Source of the DNA: a virus
Taxonomy: Duplodnaviria > Heunggongvirae > Uroviricota > Caudoviricetes
Strand: one strand, 5' to 3'
Length of the DNA: 45,337 bases
Virus record (IMG/VR): IMGVR_UViG_2721755660_000004
In this document: positions 4,525 to 18,809 of the stretch, piece after piece
How the letters are laid out: every line of letters begins with the position of its first letter
Position numbering within the stretch: the first letter of the stretch is position 1
Notes under the pieces: generated by a model
Told to the model about the DNA's origin: nothing
What the model saw: only the letters and a program-made list of their open reading frames with translations
Database searches by the model: none
Position numbers and translations under genes: made by a program

Positions 4525-4602
4525 AACATAATCTCCTGCGAATAAAGGTTGCAACAATCCCCGGCGATAAAACCGTAATAAACATTCAGGGAATATTTAT
4601 TG

Positions 4603-4974
4603 TTATTGCGCTAATTCTTTTTCGGCAGCAGATTTTGCATATTCACATGCAAAATTCAGAATTTCGCTGCCAAGTGTTTTTGTTTCGTGATTACTGGACA
4701 TATGTAATACCTGTGTTGCATGCAATAAATGATAAACATTTACCGCAAATGAATCAGGCTCCAGACAAATGCCTTCATAATCATCTTGTTGTGAGGTTGT
4801 TTCTGTCATTGCTCCTGAAGTGCATGCGAGCCTGTTTTTGACAATTCTCTTTCCTCTAAACACGATATCGGCAACTTCTATTGCTTTTATAACCTCCGGG
4901 AGAAGATCCGGGTTTGCATAATCAAAGTCATCAACATGGAGAGCAGTTATGTTTTCGAACTTTTTCGTGCGCAA
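4603..4974 (-). CDS. Hypothetical protein (123 aa, TTG start)
   Basis: ORF with a TTG start preceded by GGAG. The start lies 28 nt inside the 3' end of the upstream HTH gene. No family recognised. Confidence 0.55.
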   Translation of the reverse strand: MRTKKFENITALHVDDFDYANPDLLPEVIKAIEVADIVFRGKRIVKNRLACTSGAMTETTSQQDDYEGICLEPDSFAVNVYHLLHATQVLHMSSNHETKTLGSEILNFACEYAKSAAEKELAQ

Positions 4975-5381
4975 GTATCTCCAGCTGTTGGTTTACCGGT
5001 TAACAGCCACATCGGGTCGCAACCAAGAACATTTGCCAGCGGGATAAGCATACTGATAGTTGGTTCATGCTCTCCGCTCTCCCACTGGATTATGATGTCT
5101 TCATCGAGATCGAGCAGCCTGGCGAGTTCGGCGGTTGTTAAGCCGCAGGATTCGCGTTGGGTGCGAAGACGGTTGTTGATTGCAGAATTTTTGTTCTGTA
5201 AAAGCATTGCTGACGATAGCTTTCTGGATATGCTATTTGTCATATCCCATGCCAGTCCTGCGCATGACTCGATATCGCCAGAGAGCGTAGCATCTGGCGT
5301 TGCTTTGGCTATTAGTGTAATGAGACTGCCGAGGTTTTTCAGTTCTTCAAGACAGTCAAGAGTTGTAGCTTTATTGATCAT
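4947..5381 (-). CDS. XRE-family HTH protein with an unknown N-terminal domain (144 aa); first gene of the leftward operon
   Basis: The C-terminal half matches the Cro/C1-type HTH pattern (LRTQRESCGLTTAELARLLDLDEDIIIQWESGEHEPTISMLIPLANVLGCDPMWLLTG). GAGGT SD 8 nt upstream. Confidence 0.8.
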   Translation of the reverse strand: MINKATTLDCLEELKNLGSLITLIAKATPDATLSGDIESCAGLAWDMTNSISRKLSSAMLLQNKNSAINNRLRTQRESCGLTTAELARLLDLDEDIIIQWESGEHEPTISMLIPLANVLGCDPMWLLTGKPTAGDTCARKSSKT

Positions 5382-5412
5382 GAGATGATACCTCAGTTAC
5401 GAACTTTGTTTT

Positions 5413-5460
5413 ATGGTAACTAAGGTATCAAGGCGTGGCAAGTGATTTTTGATACTTTGG
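5413..5460 (-). promoter_or_regulatory. Putative PL promoter with OL-type operator half-sites
   Basis: On the minus strand: -35 TTGCCA (5441-5436), 17-nt spacer, -10 TACCAT (5418-5413). Inverted 7-mers GTATCAA (5425-5431) and TTGATAC (5449-5455). The 12-mer TTGATACTTTGG (5449-5460) is repeated exactly at 6188-6199. Confidence 0.5.
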
Positions 5461-5484
5461 TTTCTTTTTGTGTTTTGAGTCTGG

Positions 5485-6141
5485 TCAGAAAATATCCCAC
5501 CTGGCATCAACTACAACACCTACTATTTCGCAATCATTGTCCATTTCTATGATTGGATATTGTGGATTAAGGGGCTTTAGAAACGCCTTTCCCATTTCAG
5601 AAATATATTTTTTGAATGTTGCTTCATTGGTGGATTTTTTTCTGGCGATGACGTAACACCCTGAAAAAACTTCTTTATCTGGGTTGACAAGGATCGACAT
5701 TCCTTCAGGAAATGTTATTCCTACGGGCGAAGTCATTGAGTCTCCGTGCACTTCCAGCCAGAACCCCCTATCACCAGCGTATTTTACAGAATGCCTCCAG
5801 TTATCCTGATCATACATGTTGTAGTCATCACCAGCAGTTGCGAATAATCCTGCCTGAACCCAGTTAATTACAGGGTAAGAGTGTGCTGTGTCTCTCTGTG
5901 GGCAGCTCTTAACATTATTTTCCCAATGCTTATCTTTTTCATCTCCGCTCTGAAGCCACTGCGGTGAACACTGCAGTGCAGCTGCGACTTTAAAAAGGGT
6001 GTCACCGTTGAAACTTTTTGTAAGGCCTTGCTCGGCTTTACTGATTGCAACTCTGGTGACCCCTGCTTTTTTAGCCAACGCATCTTGCGTTAACCCAGCT
6101 TTTTGTCGTGCGTTGATGAGGCGTTCACCTAAAGATTTCAT
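5485..6141 (-). CDS. cI: CI-type prophage repressor: N-terminal HTH plus C-terminal S24 (LexA-like) autopeptidase (218 aa)
   Basis: HTH (GLTQDALAKKAGVTRVAISKAEQG) and S24 motifs (GDSM..., later KK). AAGGAG SD before the ATG at 6141. Divergent from a cro-like gene. Confidence 0.9.
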   Translation of the reverse strand: MKSLGERLINARQKAGLTQDALAKKAGVTRVAISKAEQGLTKSFNGDTLFKVAAALQCSPQWLQSGDEKDKHWENNVKSCPQRDTAHSYPVINWVQAGLFATAGDDYNMYDQDNWRHSVKYAGDRGFWLEVHGDSMTSPVGITFPEGMSILVNPDKEVFSGCYVIARKKSTNEATFKKYISEMGKAFLKPLNPQYPIIEMDNDCEIVGVVVDARWDIF

Positions 6142-6163
6142 TTTTCTTCTCCTTTCATGGCTG

Positions 6164-6236
6164 CTGATACTAAAGTAACAGAATCTCTTGATACTTTGGA
6201 TTCTCGCGTTTAACATTCTTGGATAACAGAGTATCC
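6164..6236. promoter_or_regulatory. OR-type divergent control region (putative PR, with operators)
   Basis: On the plus strand: -35 TTGATA (6188-6193), 17-nt spacer, -10 TAACAT (6211-6216). TTGATACTTTGG (6188-6199) is identical to the OL copy. A related CTGATAC lies at 6164-6170, and GGATA-N6-TATCC at 6221-6236. Confidence 0.5.
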
Positions 6237-6252
6237 GGTGTGAGACTAAAGA

Positions 6253-6480
6253 ATGACCCTTTATGAAATATTAAAAACTCAATTTAAAACCAATGCCGCT
6301 ATTGGCCGCAGGTTCCCAAAGAAAGGAAAGCCTCGTGGCAGTCAAGGTGTTGGAAAGTGGAAAACGAGAGGTGTTCCAGAGGACGTAGCTATTCTCTGCC
6401 ATCTGGATCCAAGTATCCCGTATATCCATCCTGATTTAGCGCACACAGAAGAGGGGCAAGGTAAGCAATCGGAGGTGTGA
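6253..6480 (+). CDS. cro: Cro-like small DNA-binding regulator (75 aa)
   Basis: Small basic ORF divergent from cI across the operator region. Function is assigned mainly from position. Confidence 0.7.
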   Translation: MTLYEILKTQFKTNAAIGRRFPKKGKPRGSQGVGKWKTRGVPEDVAILCHLDPSIPYIHPDLAHTEEGQGKQSEV

Positions 6481-6481
6481 T

Positions 6482-7228
6482 ATGTCACAGTGCTTAGCGA
6501 TGCTTCAGAAACTTAATCAGCGTGTTAAGGCTGGGAAGAATTTCTGCGGGAGTTTTGATAACCGGAACAATCCGCCTGTCTTCATAGAGCTCACTAGCTT
6601 TCAGTGCGTTAAAAAAGTTATCTACGGCTTGTTGGTAACTTCGTGCTTGTCTGCTGCTCAGGTGAGGGCGCAGTCTTCTGAAATCGTCTCTGGATATATG
6701 TGGCATATCCCGTTTTCCGTCTCGGCAACCCTCGCGGAAGGCGTCAAGGATCAGGAACAATTCATCAGCGACGGCATTGAACTCTTTCCGCTTATCTCGA
6801 TTTTTGGCAAGCCAGTGTCCGAGCCAGGCGCCAAGTCCAAAAGCACTAACCGTCCAGATGAAGGTAACAAGGCGCGGGTTGGTATTGAACAGAAGAACAA
6901 ACTCACTCCAGATGATTCCCATAATTTCTGGCGACTCCTTTTTGTTCAGGTAGCGGCATTTCTTGTTGCATTTCCTGTTGGTGCTTATTTCAGCATGCGG
7001 GCAAATCTTCGCAATGACTGGCGTAAGCATATCCAGAAAGGAAGACGCCTGAAAGTACCCGTACTGGCTATGTTCTCCATCACAGGCATCAGCGATCGCA
7101 TTAAACCTCGATCTTGGCAGATATGGGAACGGAAGCATTGGTTTCAGGATATGCGGATATGCCATGGGATCGAGGCTGCTTATAGGGATGCATGGCTCTG
7201 GAAAAAGCGCGTAACTGAGAAGTGCTGA
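6482..7228 (+). CDS. Hypothetical protein (248 aa), possibly membrane-associated. Strand assignment is uncertain (see findings).
   Basis: The ATG lies 1 nt after the cro stop, with a GGAGG SD 6 nt upstream. It ends 38 nt before the next gene. An equally long codon-aligned antisense ORF (6494-7300) competes with it. Confidence 0.45.
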   Translation: MSQCLAMLQKLNQRVKAGKNFCGSFDNRNNPPVFIELTSFQCVKKVIYGLLVTSCLSAAQVRAQSSEIVSGYMWHIPFSVSATLAEGVKDQEQFISDGIELFPLISIFGKPVSEPGAKSKSTNRPDEGNKARVGIEQKNKLTPDDSHNFWRLLFVQVAAFLVAFPVGAYFSMRANLRNDWRKHIQKGRRLKVPVLAMFSITGISDRIKPRSWQIWERKHWFQDMRICHGIEAAYRDAWLWKKRVTEKC

Positions 7229-7265
7229 ACCGTGATCCCAATAATTTATCCGTAAGGAGGTATCA

Positions 7266-7973
7266 GTGAACACCGCAATTTTTAACGATAAAGCATCCAT
7301 GACCAGCGTTGAGATCGCAGAGCTGGTGGGTAGTCAGCACTCAGATGTTAAACGTAGTATCGAACGCCTGGTTGCTAAAAACGTCATCCGGAAACCGCCA
7401 ATGGCTGTTTCCGAGAAAATCAATAACTTAGGTTTTAAAGTTCAATATGAGCATTACCTGTTTGAAGGAGAACAAGGTAAGCGCGACAGCATCATTGTCG
7501 TCGCACAGCTCTGCCCTGAATTCACTGCTCGCCTGGTAGATCGCTGGCGCGAACTGGAAGAACAGATCCGTAAGCCAATGAGCGAAATCGAAATGGTTGC
7601 TGCGATGGCTCTTGAAGCCGTTCGTCAGCAAAAACGCCTCGACCAGATGGAAGAGAAAGTCACCCACGTTACTGAAACCGTCGAGCAAATCAAAAGAGGC
7701 ACCATACGCGATGGTTATGCAGGCTATCGTCAGCTGGTGGCGAAAACGGGTATGTCAGATGCGAAATGCCGCAATCCGGTGAACGCATATCAGATCCCTA
7801 CCGACACCCATGAATTTATGACGCCGGATGGATTGTTGTCTCGTCGCGCGATTGTTGCAGTAGAACCCTTCATGTCTGCTTTTCATCGCATGATGAGTGA
7901 AGCAGAACCACGAGGTACTCGCTGGTATCACCCGAAAATGGGGTTGTTCCAGGCGCTGGGCTGGCAGGTGTAA
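7266..7973 (+). CDS. Rha-family phage regulatory protein (235 aa, GTG start)
   Basis: N-terminus matches the Rha pattern (MTSVEIAELVGSQHSDVKRSIERLV). AAGGAGG SD 5 nt upstream of the GTG. Confidence 0.8.
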   Translation: MNTAIFNDKASMTSVEIAELVGSQHSDVKRSIERLVAKNVIRKPPMAVSEKINNLGFKVQYEHYLFEGEQGKRDSIIVVAQLCPEFTARLVDRWRELEEQIRKPMSEIEMVAAMALEAVRQQKRLDQMEEKVTHVTETVEQIKRGTIRDGYAGYRQLVAKTGMSDAKCRNPVNAYQIPTDTHEFMTPDGLLSRRAIVAVEPFMSAFHRMMSEAEPRGTRWYHPKMGLFQALGWQV

Positions 7974-8229: not shown

Positions 8230-8622
8230 ATGGGAAGAAAAGCAAGGCATCTTGCAAATAAAGAAATCATTAAAGTATTGGCTGAACGCTATCCAGAAAG
8301 CTTCTTTGTTATTCCATACAAAGTGGTTCCGCTTGTTCACGATATCGTTCATGAGCTCTTTGCCGATCTCGGACATATACCTAAGGAATACAAAAACAGC
8401 CTTCGAAGAGCCATCTATCAGTACAAAAGCTCAGATTCATACCTTCAGTCAGTCGCGTTTGGAGAATATCGCCGCAATCTGGCGGGAAATCGTATTGTCA
8501 GAACATCCGTATCTGAACGCGAAGAAGCCAGAGCACAACTCAAAGAACGTGGTATCTGGACTCGTCGTATGGAGCTCTTGTTCAAAGTTAATATGGGTAG
8601 AAAAGAAGCGTCTAATCGCTGA
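8230..8622 (+). CDS. ProQ/FinO-family RNA-binding protein (130 aa)
   Basis: Collinear with the remembered E. coli ProQ N-terminal domain: NKEIIKVLAERYPESF vs SKEVIAFLAERFPHCF; SLRRAIYQYKSSDSYL vs QLRSALRLYTSSWRYL; ...RRNLAGN...EEARAQLKE. GGAG SD 8 nt upstream. Confidence 0.85.
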   Translation: MGRKARHLANKEIIKVLAERYPESFFVIPYKVVPLVHDIVHELFADLGHIPKEYKNSLRRAIYQYKSSDSYLQSVAFGEYRRNLAGNRIVRTSVSEREEARAQLKERGIWTRRMELLFKVNMGRKEASNR

Positions 8623-8671
8623 ATTTTATCAAAACATTGATTCCTTAATTTCGGAACGTTACACTGTTCAG

Positions 8672-8748
8672 GCACCTTATAAAACGGGTGCCGGGATTGG
8701 CGTCCTGAAATTCAATATAGAGCATAACCGCGCTCATGCGGTTTTTTC
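8672..8748 (+). ncRNA. Candidate small RNA (about 75 nt) between a sigma70-like promoter and an intrinsic terminator
   Basis: -35 TTGATT (8637-8642), 17-nt spacer, -10 TACACT (8660-8665). 5' hairpin GGCACC-N10-GGTGCC (8671-8692). Terminator hairpin plus U-tract at 8726-8748. No credible ORF. Confidence 0.35.
8726..8748 (+). terminator. Rho-independent terminator (AACCGC-GCTCAT-GCGGTT + T6)
   Basis: 6-bp GC-rich stem followed by TTTTTT, seen directly. Confidence 0.6.
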
Positions 8749-8914
8749 GTGTCATGAGCATTGCTACGCCCAAATTATGGTGGGGCGTGCAGGGGCATCG
8801 CAAGATGCGCCGGGTTCTATGTTGACCGGTTACGCCAACCCTGTACGTCTCACCACCTCTGTGATTGGCGTCCCATGTGGTGAGTTCTTTGAATTCAACA
8901 TAGGGGCTGTCACC

Positions 8915-9478
8915 ATGACTACTCTCCCAACCCTCTCTCAACCTGAAATTGCGATCGTTGATGGTCAGGCTGTTACATCTTCTTTGGCTGTTGCTGACTT
9001 CTTCTCTAAACGTCATGACGATGTTCTGAAAAAGATCCGCATTTTGGATTGTTCTCCAGAGTTTTGTGCCCGCAATTTTGCGGAGACATCAATTTTGGTA
9101 CACCAGCCCAACGGCGGTACTCGCAAACTTCCTTGCTACCACATCACCCGCGATGGCTTCGCGTTCCTGGCAATGGGCTTTACTGGCAAACGTGCAGCCC
9201 GGTTCAAAGAGGCATACATCAACGCCTTTAACCAGATGGAGAAGAATTTATCTGGTGCTGACGCGGTTGATATGTCAGCTGTTGCACGAAACGCCAGAGG
9301 CGTATACCTGCATTTGCGTGAAATCCATCAAATCTGGAAAAGCCAGCTTTACCCCATGCTTAAGGCCGTTGAATCTCCGCTGGCGAGCAAGCTGTATGAC
9401 CGTGTAGGAGATGCTGTTTTTGGCGCTGCACTTGTTGATTCCAGACTTAATGGTTCTGACAAGGAGGCGCACCCATGA
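8915..9478 (+). CDS. Second Rha-family phage regulatory protein (187 aa)
   Basis: The internal start MTTLPTLSQPEIAIVDGQAVTSSLAVADFFSKRHDDVLKKI is the typical Rha N-terminus. The track's 500-aa ORF upstream of it crosses a terminator and the ProQ-like gene. Confidence 0.75.
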   Translation: MTTLPTLSQPEIAIVDGQAVTSSLAVADFFSKRHDDVLKKIRILDCSPEFCARNFAETSILVHQPNGGTRKLPCYHITRDGFAFLAMGFTGKRAARFKEAYINAFNQMEKNLSGADAVDMSAVARNARGVYLHLREIHQIWKSQLYPMLKAVESPLASKLYDRVGDAVFGAALVDSRLNGSDKEAHP

Positions 9479-18592: not shown

Positions 18593-18786
18593 AATGTTAA
18601 ATCCATCACAATTAAGTTGATTGGGCATTGCTGGTTGACGGAGCTTTTGTTAGAAAAAATTTGCATGGTGGATCCCCCCGGGTGGTGGGCATATGAGTGA
18701 TGTATGTTTCTGTTCTGCTCCTTTATTATGCTGATTCGGGTACTGATACTGAATTCATCGGGAGGCACCCGGCACCATGCAAGCAT

Positions 18787-18809
18787 GCCCCTCTCCTGAG
18801 GGGCTTTTT
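18787..18809 (+). terminator. Intrinsic terminator (GCCCCTC-TCCT-GAGGGGC + T5)
   Basis: Perfect 7-bp GC-rich stem plus T-run. Confidence 0.65.

Follow-up and report, generated by a model that had tools for sequence, protein, structure and literature searches.

The stretch of DNA analysed here (IMG/VR record IMGVR_UViG_2721755660_000004, Caudoviricetes, 45,337 nt; called the window below) is, judged from its sequence, a phiP27-like prophage at yecE, and a DUF72 (yecE) gene adjoins it. Its minus strand carries, in this order, cI, a gene for a helix-turn-helix (HTH) protein, small open reading frames (ORFs), an SPFH protein gene, xis and int. We describe the first two genes behind cI: the HTH gene, which encodes a 144-aa regulator, and ORF123, the window's allele of a conserved 121-aa protein (ORF121). 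The 2.3 kb around this pair was 100% identical to the chromosome of Escherichia coli GB089 and to two other strains, and 98.5% identical to the Shiga toxin (Stx) 2e phage phiP27. Related early regions were found in long-tailed Stx1a, Stx2a and Stx2d phages of O145:H28 and other Shiga toxin-producing E. coli (STEC).

The survey comprised 80 IMG/VR loci, six other loci and the window, giving 86 non-redundant loci once L002, the window's own genome copy, had been left out of the counts. Such a survey had been suggested in a preliminary description of this DNA, and it found that about 79 of the 86 loci, from six cI immunity types, keep the pair downstream of cI with its gene order unchanged (regulator, then ORF121), which supports a functional tie between the two. 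Literature searches found no functional studies of phiP27 L08/L10 or of the 144-aa regulator family; the mEpimmI paper has as its subject an unrelated N-like system, and the prophage toxin-antitoxin system paaR2-paaA2-parE2 is probably unrelated as well.

The regulator and its control region

The Pfam domain HTH_3 was found at regulator residues 72–126 (E 6e-11). In the AlphaFold2 (AF2) model, with a mean predicted local distance difference test (pLDDT) of 78.6, helices 4–27 and 31–78 are followed by a five-helix XRE domain, and the N-terminal hairpin is predicted to be joined to the HTH via a continuous helix. Both results agree with the preliminary description, which had read the protein as a helical N-domain with a C-terminal XRE-type HTH. 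The best match of this HTH, in structure as well as in sequence, was the DNA-binding domain of the P22 C2 repressor, and 9iaq and 5d50 were among the structural matches. Over residues 1–139 the regulator matched PHROG 4739 ('unknown function', E 4.5e-83). No curated family was reached at its cut-off: PADLOC, NCBIfam and Pfam gave generic sub-threshold HTH matches, and the DicA model NF007257 scored 46.5 bits, on the HTH only, against a curated cut-off of 101. The Pfam domains SinI (at E <= 1) and Phage_CII matched neither the regulator nor ORF123.

The spacer between cI and the regulator gene contains a sigma-70-like promoter found by promoter scan (TTGCCA at 5441–5436, a 17-nt spacer and TACCAT at 5418–5413) and three copies of an operator-like 15-mer, GWWWMNNNNGTATCA, at 5450–5464 (-), 5416–5430 (+) and 5386–5400 (-). 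Together with the two copies between cI and cro (Table 1), five matches were found in the 45 kb where 0.19 were expected, all of them in 5386–5464 and 6165–6203. Since the pattern was derived from the very sites that it matches, the match itself is circular, and only the exclusive location and the sharing between the left (OL) and right (OR) operator regions are informative. On these two points the 15-mers look like a putative CI operator set. An operator pattern with N5 spacing gave no relevant matches, and the N4 pattern was used instead. The cI product is named 'LexA family protein' by PGAP.

With three operator-like 15-mers and a sigma-70-like promoter in front of it, the 144-aa gene plausibly heads an operon of the PL type (after the leftward promoter of lambda). 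The regulator and ORF123 are probably silent in the lysogen, because their genes lie behind a promoter covered by CI-operator-like sites. The boxA consensus (CGCTCTTW) had no match in the whole window, where boxB was not searched, and no N-like family was matched in Pfam or PHROG by the left-operon ORFs tested. This accords with the preliminary description, in which neither an N-like antiterminator nor a nut-like element had been recognised. Its proposal of a non-canonical early-left design also holds, since the arrangement differs from that of lambda and the place of N is taken by an HTH regulator.

The immunity-cassette boundary inside the regulator gene

Compared with phages of five other immunity types, the window showed 92–97% nucleotide identity from int up to 5167/5168–5172, where the identity was lost; it picked up again only near 7254–7267. 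Position 5168 corresponds to codon 71/72, that is, to the junction between hairpin and HTH. Since the identity stops at this junction, the hairpin would be the left end of an exchangeable immunity cassette (about 5169–7253). Judged from these alignments, the cassette comprises the hairpin, OL/PL, cI, OR, cro and one more ORF, and the HTH is part of the left arm, which is conserved. An exchange boundary of an immunity cassette at an intragenic domain junction is a clean natural experiment on domain-level mosaicism.

The HTH was about 90–100% identical across homologues and immunity types and is present once or twice. Many alleles of the regulator family (seen in P0025, P0026, P0110, L004 and L005) have two tandem XRE HTHs in one chain. 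In the single-HTH forms, that of the window included, the helices of HTH1 are joined to the C-terminal end of HTH2, and by their sequences these alleles look like recombinational deletions between the HTH repeats. Some regulator alleles have an added Gln/His-rich C-tail. A search for the DNA target of the HTH in conserved intergenic DNA gave nothing convincing. At least eight types can be distinguished in the N-terminal part of about 70 residues, and the pairwise similarity between types is slight or absent. All of them, and the ORF121 hairpin too, are nevertheless collinear when aligned, with one helix on either side of a short loop.

At the type level, hairpin type and cI type corresponded one-to-one across the 86 loci. 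Within cI type 1 the cI proteins were 90–96% identical and the hairpins only 36–56%, falling into three subtypes. Near-identical cI proteins with diverged hairpins suggest that the association is not only hitch-hiking. These data bear on the explanation that the regulator is an immunity-specific accessory of the switch, acting as antirepressor or co-repressor through a contact of its hairpin with the CI or Cro of its own immunity type, and that ORF121 is an unrelated downstream accessory gene. The position of the cassette boundary exactly at the hairpin/HTH junction and the one-to-one correspondence of types would both be expected from it. However, one and the same cI type carries three hairpin subtypes, adjacency by itself predicts co-segregation, and the paralogy between ORF121 and the regulator hairpins, described below, is ignored; we consider this explanation quite unlikely.

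Inside the cassette, at 6482–7300, two long ORFs on opposite strands overlap (Table 1). A PHROG search with both ORFs gave no match, and Pfam was not run on them.

The second gene and its relation to the regulator

At the family level, sequence conservation indicates that the second ORF is a real gene. Residues 4–123 of ORF123 matched PHROG 5451 ('unknown function', E 1.3e-78), and ORF121 homologues down to 54% identity remain full length. An intact, ATG-started ORF of 121/123 aa was present in 70 of the 86 loci, and the 72 full-length copies, with 39 distinct nucleotide alleles, are all open. Between divergent pairs dN/dS was 0.42–0.60 for codons 1–55 and 0.27–0.29 for codons 56–121. It had been considered earlier that the 123-aa ORF might be poorly conserved or start at an internal ATG; the full length proved to be conserved, short forms of 66–68 aa do exist, and it is the start in the window that is damaged. 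Compared with L003, L004 and L023, dS of the window was 0.33–0.74 in the N part and 1.2–1.4 in the C part, and this roughly threefold gap points to a recombination breakpoint inside ORF121 too.

In the AF2 model of ORF123, residues 1–69 had pLDDT below 50, and helices 76–91 and 96–122 were predicted at pLDDT 70–83. The hairpin formed by these helices was 47–51% identical over 47 residues to the N-domains of type-B regulators by tblastn, and blastp gave E 7e-11. Through profile searches, ORF123 (E 3e-4) and a 66-aa natural short form (E 2e-5) matched PHROG 4836, a family of regulators with two HTHs; reciprocally, the regulator P0110 matched PHROG 4587 (E 7e-7) and PHROG 5451 (E 6e-6). The N-module of ORF123 was found in front of two HTHs in P0162, P0163 and P0168. 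Since both modules occur as N-terminal heads of the regulator family, ORF121 would effectively be a regulator without the DNA-binding domain. Direct BLASTP between the 144-aa and 123-aa proteins of the window showed no similarity (E 3.1). A family-profile search of 1.84 billion representative proteins returned only 32 clusters, P0162, P0163 and P0168 among them. Run against PDB sequences, the ORF121 profile gave a chance match only, to a designed helical protein (E 0.75).

Proteins without the HTH also occur in other forms. The 66-aa ORF (PHROG 4587) of the Stx2d phage Stx2_112808 has the C-terminal part only and is coupled through ATGA. Loci without ORF121 carry in its slot two tandem 63-aa ORFs, one like types D/C (E 3e-9) and one like type F (E 2e-10). 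In a distant prophage (L087, 1983–4316) cI is followed by a hairpin+HTH protein (191 aa), a protein with the N-module and two HTHs (205 aa), the N-module with a helical part (116 aa), a hairpin-only protein (66 aa) and a 131-aa helical ORF. This five-gene array, as far as its sequence can tell, suggests an expandable family network.

A paralogue of this kind could also be read in the manner of lambda CII and CIII. The regulator would then be an unstable lysogeny-establishment activator acting on conserved left-arm promoters (e.g. that of int), an activator otherwise lacking in these phages without N and CII, and ORF121 would be a CIII-like decoy that shields the regulator from proteolysis by offering a degron or hairpin of the same kind. 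Conservation of the HTH points to a target in DNA that is itself conserved, and xis-int lie at the end of the left arm; the annotated PR-side genes showed no cII homologue; and a decoy paralogue fits what is generally known of CIII in the lambda CII/CIII/FtsH system. PHROG 4836 is named 'CII-like regulator' and one phage record reads 'putative CII repressor', but these are annotations only and the PHROG name is not experimental. In sequence the regulator is unrelated to lambda CII, Pfam gave no Phage_CII match, a direct-repeat site of the CII type was not identified, and the hypervariable hairpin is left unexplained. We regard the CII/CIII scheme as unlikely.

The start of the second gene needs separate description. 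In the window ORF123 can be read from a TTG (4974–4972) with GGAG at 4982–4979, 4 nt upstream, and with a 28-nt overlap with the HTH gene. This arrangement, given in the preliminary description, is present in the window but does not stand as the design of the gene, since the relatives start the second ORF at an ATG two codons downstream of the TTG (MKKFENIT, the 121-aa family). Of the 78 loci whose start could be mapped, 76 use ATG; ACG was found only in the window and in L031. In coupled relatives the TGA of the regulator overlaps the ATG of the next gene (gcATGAaaaag), the closest of them, L003, having the junction gatacttgcgcATGAaaaag, and the window has ...gcACGAaaaag there. One exchange of T for C, at 4967 (minus strand), removes the TGA of the regulator, which is extended from 138 to 144 aa by RKSSKT, and at the same time the canonical ATG of the second gene (4968–4966). 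The GGAG would normally serve this ATG, because it lies 10 nt before the ATG in the relatives. An identical junction (100%) was found in 3 of 5,426 complete E. coli genomes, and in GB089 PGAP annotates only a coding sequence (CDS) of 68 aa from an internal ATG (4809–4807). By this comparison the TTG-start overlap is a local lesion, a point-mutation artefact and not a design feature. With the canonical ATG lost, translation of the partner in the window probably either fails altogether or is poor, starting at the TTG, with a Shine-Dalgarno (SD) spacing of 4 nt, or at the internal ATG, and the second gene of the window is probably a hypomorph or null.

The junction between the two genes varied among the loci. 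We found the ATGA overlap in 14 loci, a spacer of 128–131 nt in 39, where the second gene has its own GAGGAAGCC-ATG, 182–221 nt in seven, a phiP27-type insertion of about 575 nt in 16, and 1382 nt in one, where a putative insertion sequence (IS) element lies between the genes. The genes thus mostly lie 128–577 nt apart and the second has its own SD, so that the translational linkage proposed earlier does exist, as ATGA coupling, but in a minority of loci (14 of the 78 with a mapped start). The phiP27-type insertion contains an unannotated 80-aa ORF (L001, 5336–5578, minus strand; PHROG 23054) coupled by ATGA to the regulator stop, and carries L09 on the other strand. The 80-aa ORF was considered as a further paralogue and rejected, as it had no significant similarity to any hairpin type. 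The junction of the window resembles a deletion between two short ATGAAAAA repeats that flank the insertion of about 575 nt.

The preliminary description had seen in this pair the layout of many type II toxin-antitoxin and abortive infection (Abi) modules. In such a module the HTH protein would be antitoxin and autoregulator and ORF123 the toxin. An HTH gene followed by a small ORF, with the 4-nt ATGA overlap in 14 loci, has the appearance of such a module; the HTH has a generic, sub-threshold similarity to HipB, MqsA and other Xre antitoxins; and loss of the start codon, as in the window, is common among toxin genes. However, searches of Pfam, NCBIfam and PADLOC with ORF123 brought up no family of toxins or defence proteins, its folded part is only a two-helix hairpin in the AF2 model, and both of its modules have their homologues in N-terminal domains of the regulators themselves. 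Most loci are uncoupled, with a spacer of 128–577 nt and an own SD, and the promoter lies under CI operator-like sites, making expression in the lysogen unlikely. This proposal is not supported, and we judge it highly improbable.

A further explanation assumes no joint mechanism at all: an ordinary early regulator, next to a dispensable, truncated old copy of a regulator that was left behind by earlier cassette exchange and is dead in the window. It draws on the lost start codon of the window, on the highly variable junction structure and on the truncations, the IS insertion and the deletion-fusion at other loci. Among these, a deletion in L062 (3788–4318) fuses the regulator C-tail to the last 17 residues of ORF121, L064 (4470–5617) has transposase-like ORFs between regulator gene and ORF121, as would be expected of an IS element, and ORF121 is split by about 1.26 kb in L083. 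The gene was nevertheless intact in 70 of the 86 loci, its 39 alleles are open with dN/dS of 0.27–0.6, and independent hairpin-only ORFs of other types fill the same slot. We regard the absence of any joint mechanism as unlikely.

Downstream of the ORF123 stop there is a palindrome, AATAAACATTC-N3-GAATATTTATT, followed by a short U run. Judged from its sequence, it may act as a weak terminator or bind a protein; as a terminator it did not reach significance in RNA folding (z = -1.6).

Table 1. Features of the window around the gene pair and on the adjoining arms
Feature	Position	Strand	Evidence or remark
AT-rich palindrome, 11-bp arms, 91% complementary, after ORF123 stop	4577–4601	-	then GGUUUUAU
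ORF123 read from TTG; allele of conserved 121-aa protein	4603–4974	-	PHROG 5451
C-terminal hairpin domain of ORF123; also PGAP 68-aa CDS	4603–4809	-	AF2, tblastn, PHROG, blastp
N-module of ORF123, about 53 residues, KFENIT...IVKNR	4810–4968	-	low AF2 confidence
ACGA, mutated ATGA stop/start overlap	4965–4968	-	C at minus-strand 4967, T elsewhere
Regulator ORF, 144 aa	4947–5381	-	
P22 C2/434-like XRE HTH with 6-residue read-through tail RKSSKT, codons 72–144	4947–5168	-	
Type-A helical hairpin, codons 1–71, putative left end of immunity cassette	5169–5381	-	AF2, identity boundary
OL/PL-type control region, 103 bp, between cI and regulator gene	5382–5484	-	promoter scan, repeats
cI repressor, HTH and S24 LexA-like peptidase	5485–6141	-	Peptidase_S24 E 1.6e-22, HTH_3 E 1.3e-14 (Pfam)
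OR-side operator-like 15-mers, two copies (6165–6179 and 6189–6203)	6165–6203	-	GWWWMNNNNGTATCA, cI-cro spacer
cro-like gene	6253–6480	+	
ORF, 242–248 aa	6482/6500–7228	+	annotated by PGAP
ORF, 268 aa	6494–7300	-	annotated in phiP27 as L13
isrK	8672–8748	+	Rfam gathering-level match, 62.8 bits
C4 antisense RNA	8773–8860	+	Rfam gathering-level match, 80.1 bits

Proposed role of the pair and comparison with known systems

By analogy, we tentatively read the pair as a SinR/SinI-like regulator with an HTH-less modulator, and give this somewhat less than an even chance. Operon position, domain architecture, cassette boundary, conservation and paralogy are taken directly from the sequences and models; the rest of the mechanism we infer. 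The 144-aa regulator would be the first product of a CI-controlled early-left operon, and its hairpin may be an oligomerisation or partner-binding domain. Through hairpin–hairpin association, the HTH-less paralogue could act on the regulator, or on relatives of it present in the same cell, by titration or re-assortment, with the logic of SinI acting on SinR or of Id proteins acting on basic helix-loop-helix (bHLH) factors. What this would adjust is the timing or strength of the conserved left-arm target bound by the HTH after derepression. In its layout the pair resembles a repressor with its antagonist more than a toxin-antitoxin pair.

Several observations weigh against such a SinR/SinI-like pair. 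The co-segregation of hairpin and cI could be mere linkage. The regulator hairpin of the window is of type A and the ORF123 hairpin is B-like, and since types A and B have no pairwise similarity, the two do not readily suggest themselves as cognate partners. No co-variation links the ORF121 alleles to the hairpin type of the regulator or to the cI type; without such co-variation, a broad-specificity modulator, or an action on regulators of other prophages, fits better than a tight cognate pair. In about 10% of the loci ORF121 is lost, truncated or fused away and the regulator is kept, so that ORF121 appears dispensable. In addition, the N-module is modelled with low confidence and is a structurally undefined part of ORF123.

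We might also speculate that the hairpin-only proteins are decoys against the regulators of rival or co-resident prophages, acting via heteromers unable to bind DNA, with the hairpin-only types differing from the regulator hairpin of their own phage; this we hold to be very unlikely. If it were true, inter-phage interference would drive the diversification of the hairpins and explain the cassette boundary inside the gene, and immunity would gain a second layer in which a specificity of protein interaction stands beside that of the CI operators.

A second immunity or anti-repressor layer had been the other proposal of the preliminary description for this locus. It comes closer, in so far as the N-domain of the regulator travels with the cassette. 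A recognisable second layer lies elsewhere. On the right arm, isrK and C4 (Table 1) are located between a ProQ/FinO-like ORF (8230–8622) and a Rha-family antirepressor-type gene (annotated by PGAP, about 8615–9478), and the region 8672–9478 looks like an antisense-controlled antirepressor module of the P1 c4-ant/Gifsy-1 IsrK type. Another Rfam match, to the small RNA STnc100, was found at 18634–18809 (+), full length with 93.7 bits.

As far as we found, it has gone unremarked that Stx-type phages combine a hypervariable hairpin inside the immunity cassette with an HTH that is conserved and with arrays of paralogues lacking the HTH. Early regions of this type are found both in phiP27-like prophages and in long-tailed Stx1 and Stx2 phages from STEC, those of O145:H28 included. 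A comparative study linked early-region type to the Stx2 output of the strain, and annotated the first two PL genes just as 'transcriptional regulator' and 'hypothetical' (PMC11333237). If the titration network proposed above is true, the network might be a point at which the timing of induction and the output of toxin are controlled, and it would give a phage example of the logic of SinR/SinI and Id/bHLH.

Among known systems, lambda offers a like position: the regulator gene comes first behind an OL/PL that looks tripartite and adjoins cI, as N does behind PL. Unlike in lambda, we found no N, no protein with an arginine-rich motif and no boxA. A small accessory protein possibly modulating a regulator also recalls CII/CIII, but there is no homology, and the regulator here is an XRE HTH with a helical hairpin. 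The likeness to P22 C2, the 434 repressor and DicA is limited to the HTH of about 65 residues, with no S24 or C-terminal dimerisation domain, and the actual repressor of the phage is the neighbouring S24 protein. Xre-antitoxin modules (HipBA, Xre-RES, MqsRA) share the order of HTH gene and small ORF, and part of our alleles also have the two overlapping by 4 nt, but they differ in that our pair has no toxin fold or family, its coupling is not conserved and it is probably repressed in lysogens. As in the small phage antirepressors (AimX of arbitrium systems, Rep-Ant of Salmonella phages), a small protein is proposed to contact an XRE-type regulator; action of a small phage protein on such a regulator by protein contact is put forward in a preprint (bioRxiv 10.1101/2025.11.23.689978). 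Those antirepressors are not paralogues of the domain that they target, and the presumed target here is not the main repressor.

The SinR/SinI (SlrR/SlrA) system of Bacillus subtilis, on which our reading is modelled, is the closest precedent. SinR combines an XRE-type HTH with a helical multimerisation domain, and its small adjacent paralogue SinI forms with it a heterodimer without DNA binding, as outlined in PMC3163267. For the regulator a hairpin plus XRE HTH is predicted, and the hairpin may be an oligomerisation domain. Next to it is encoded a small HTH-less protein that is a paralogue of the helical domain, here at the family level, its hairpin being B-like and not of its neighbour's type A. 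Unlike in SinR, the domain order is reversed, with the hairpin N-terminal; there is no SinI match in Pfam, and the small protein has an extra N-module; and the hairpin is hypervariable and lies within a phage immunity cassette.

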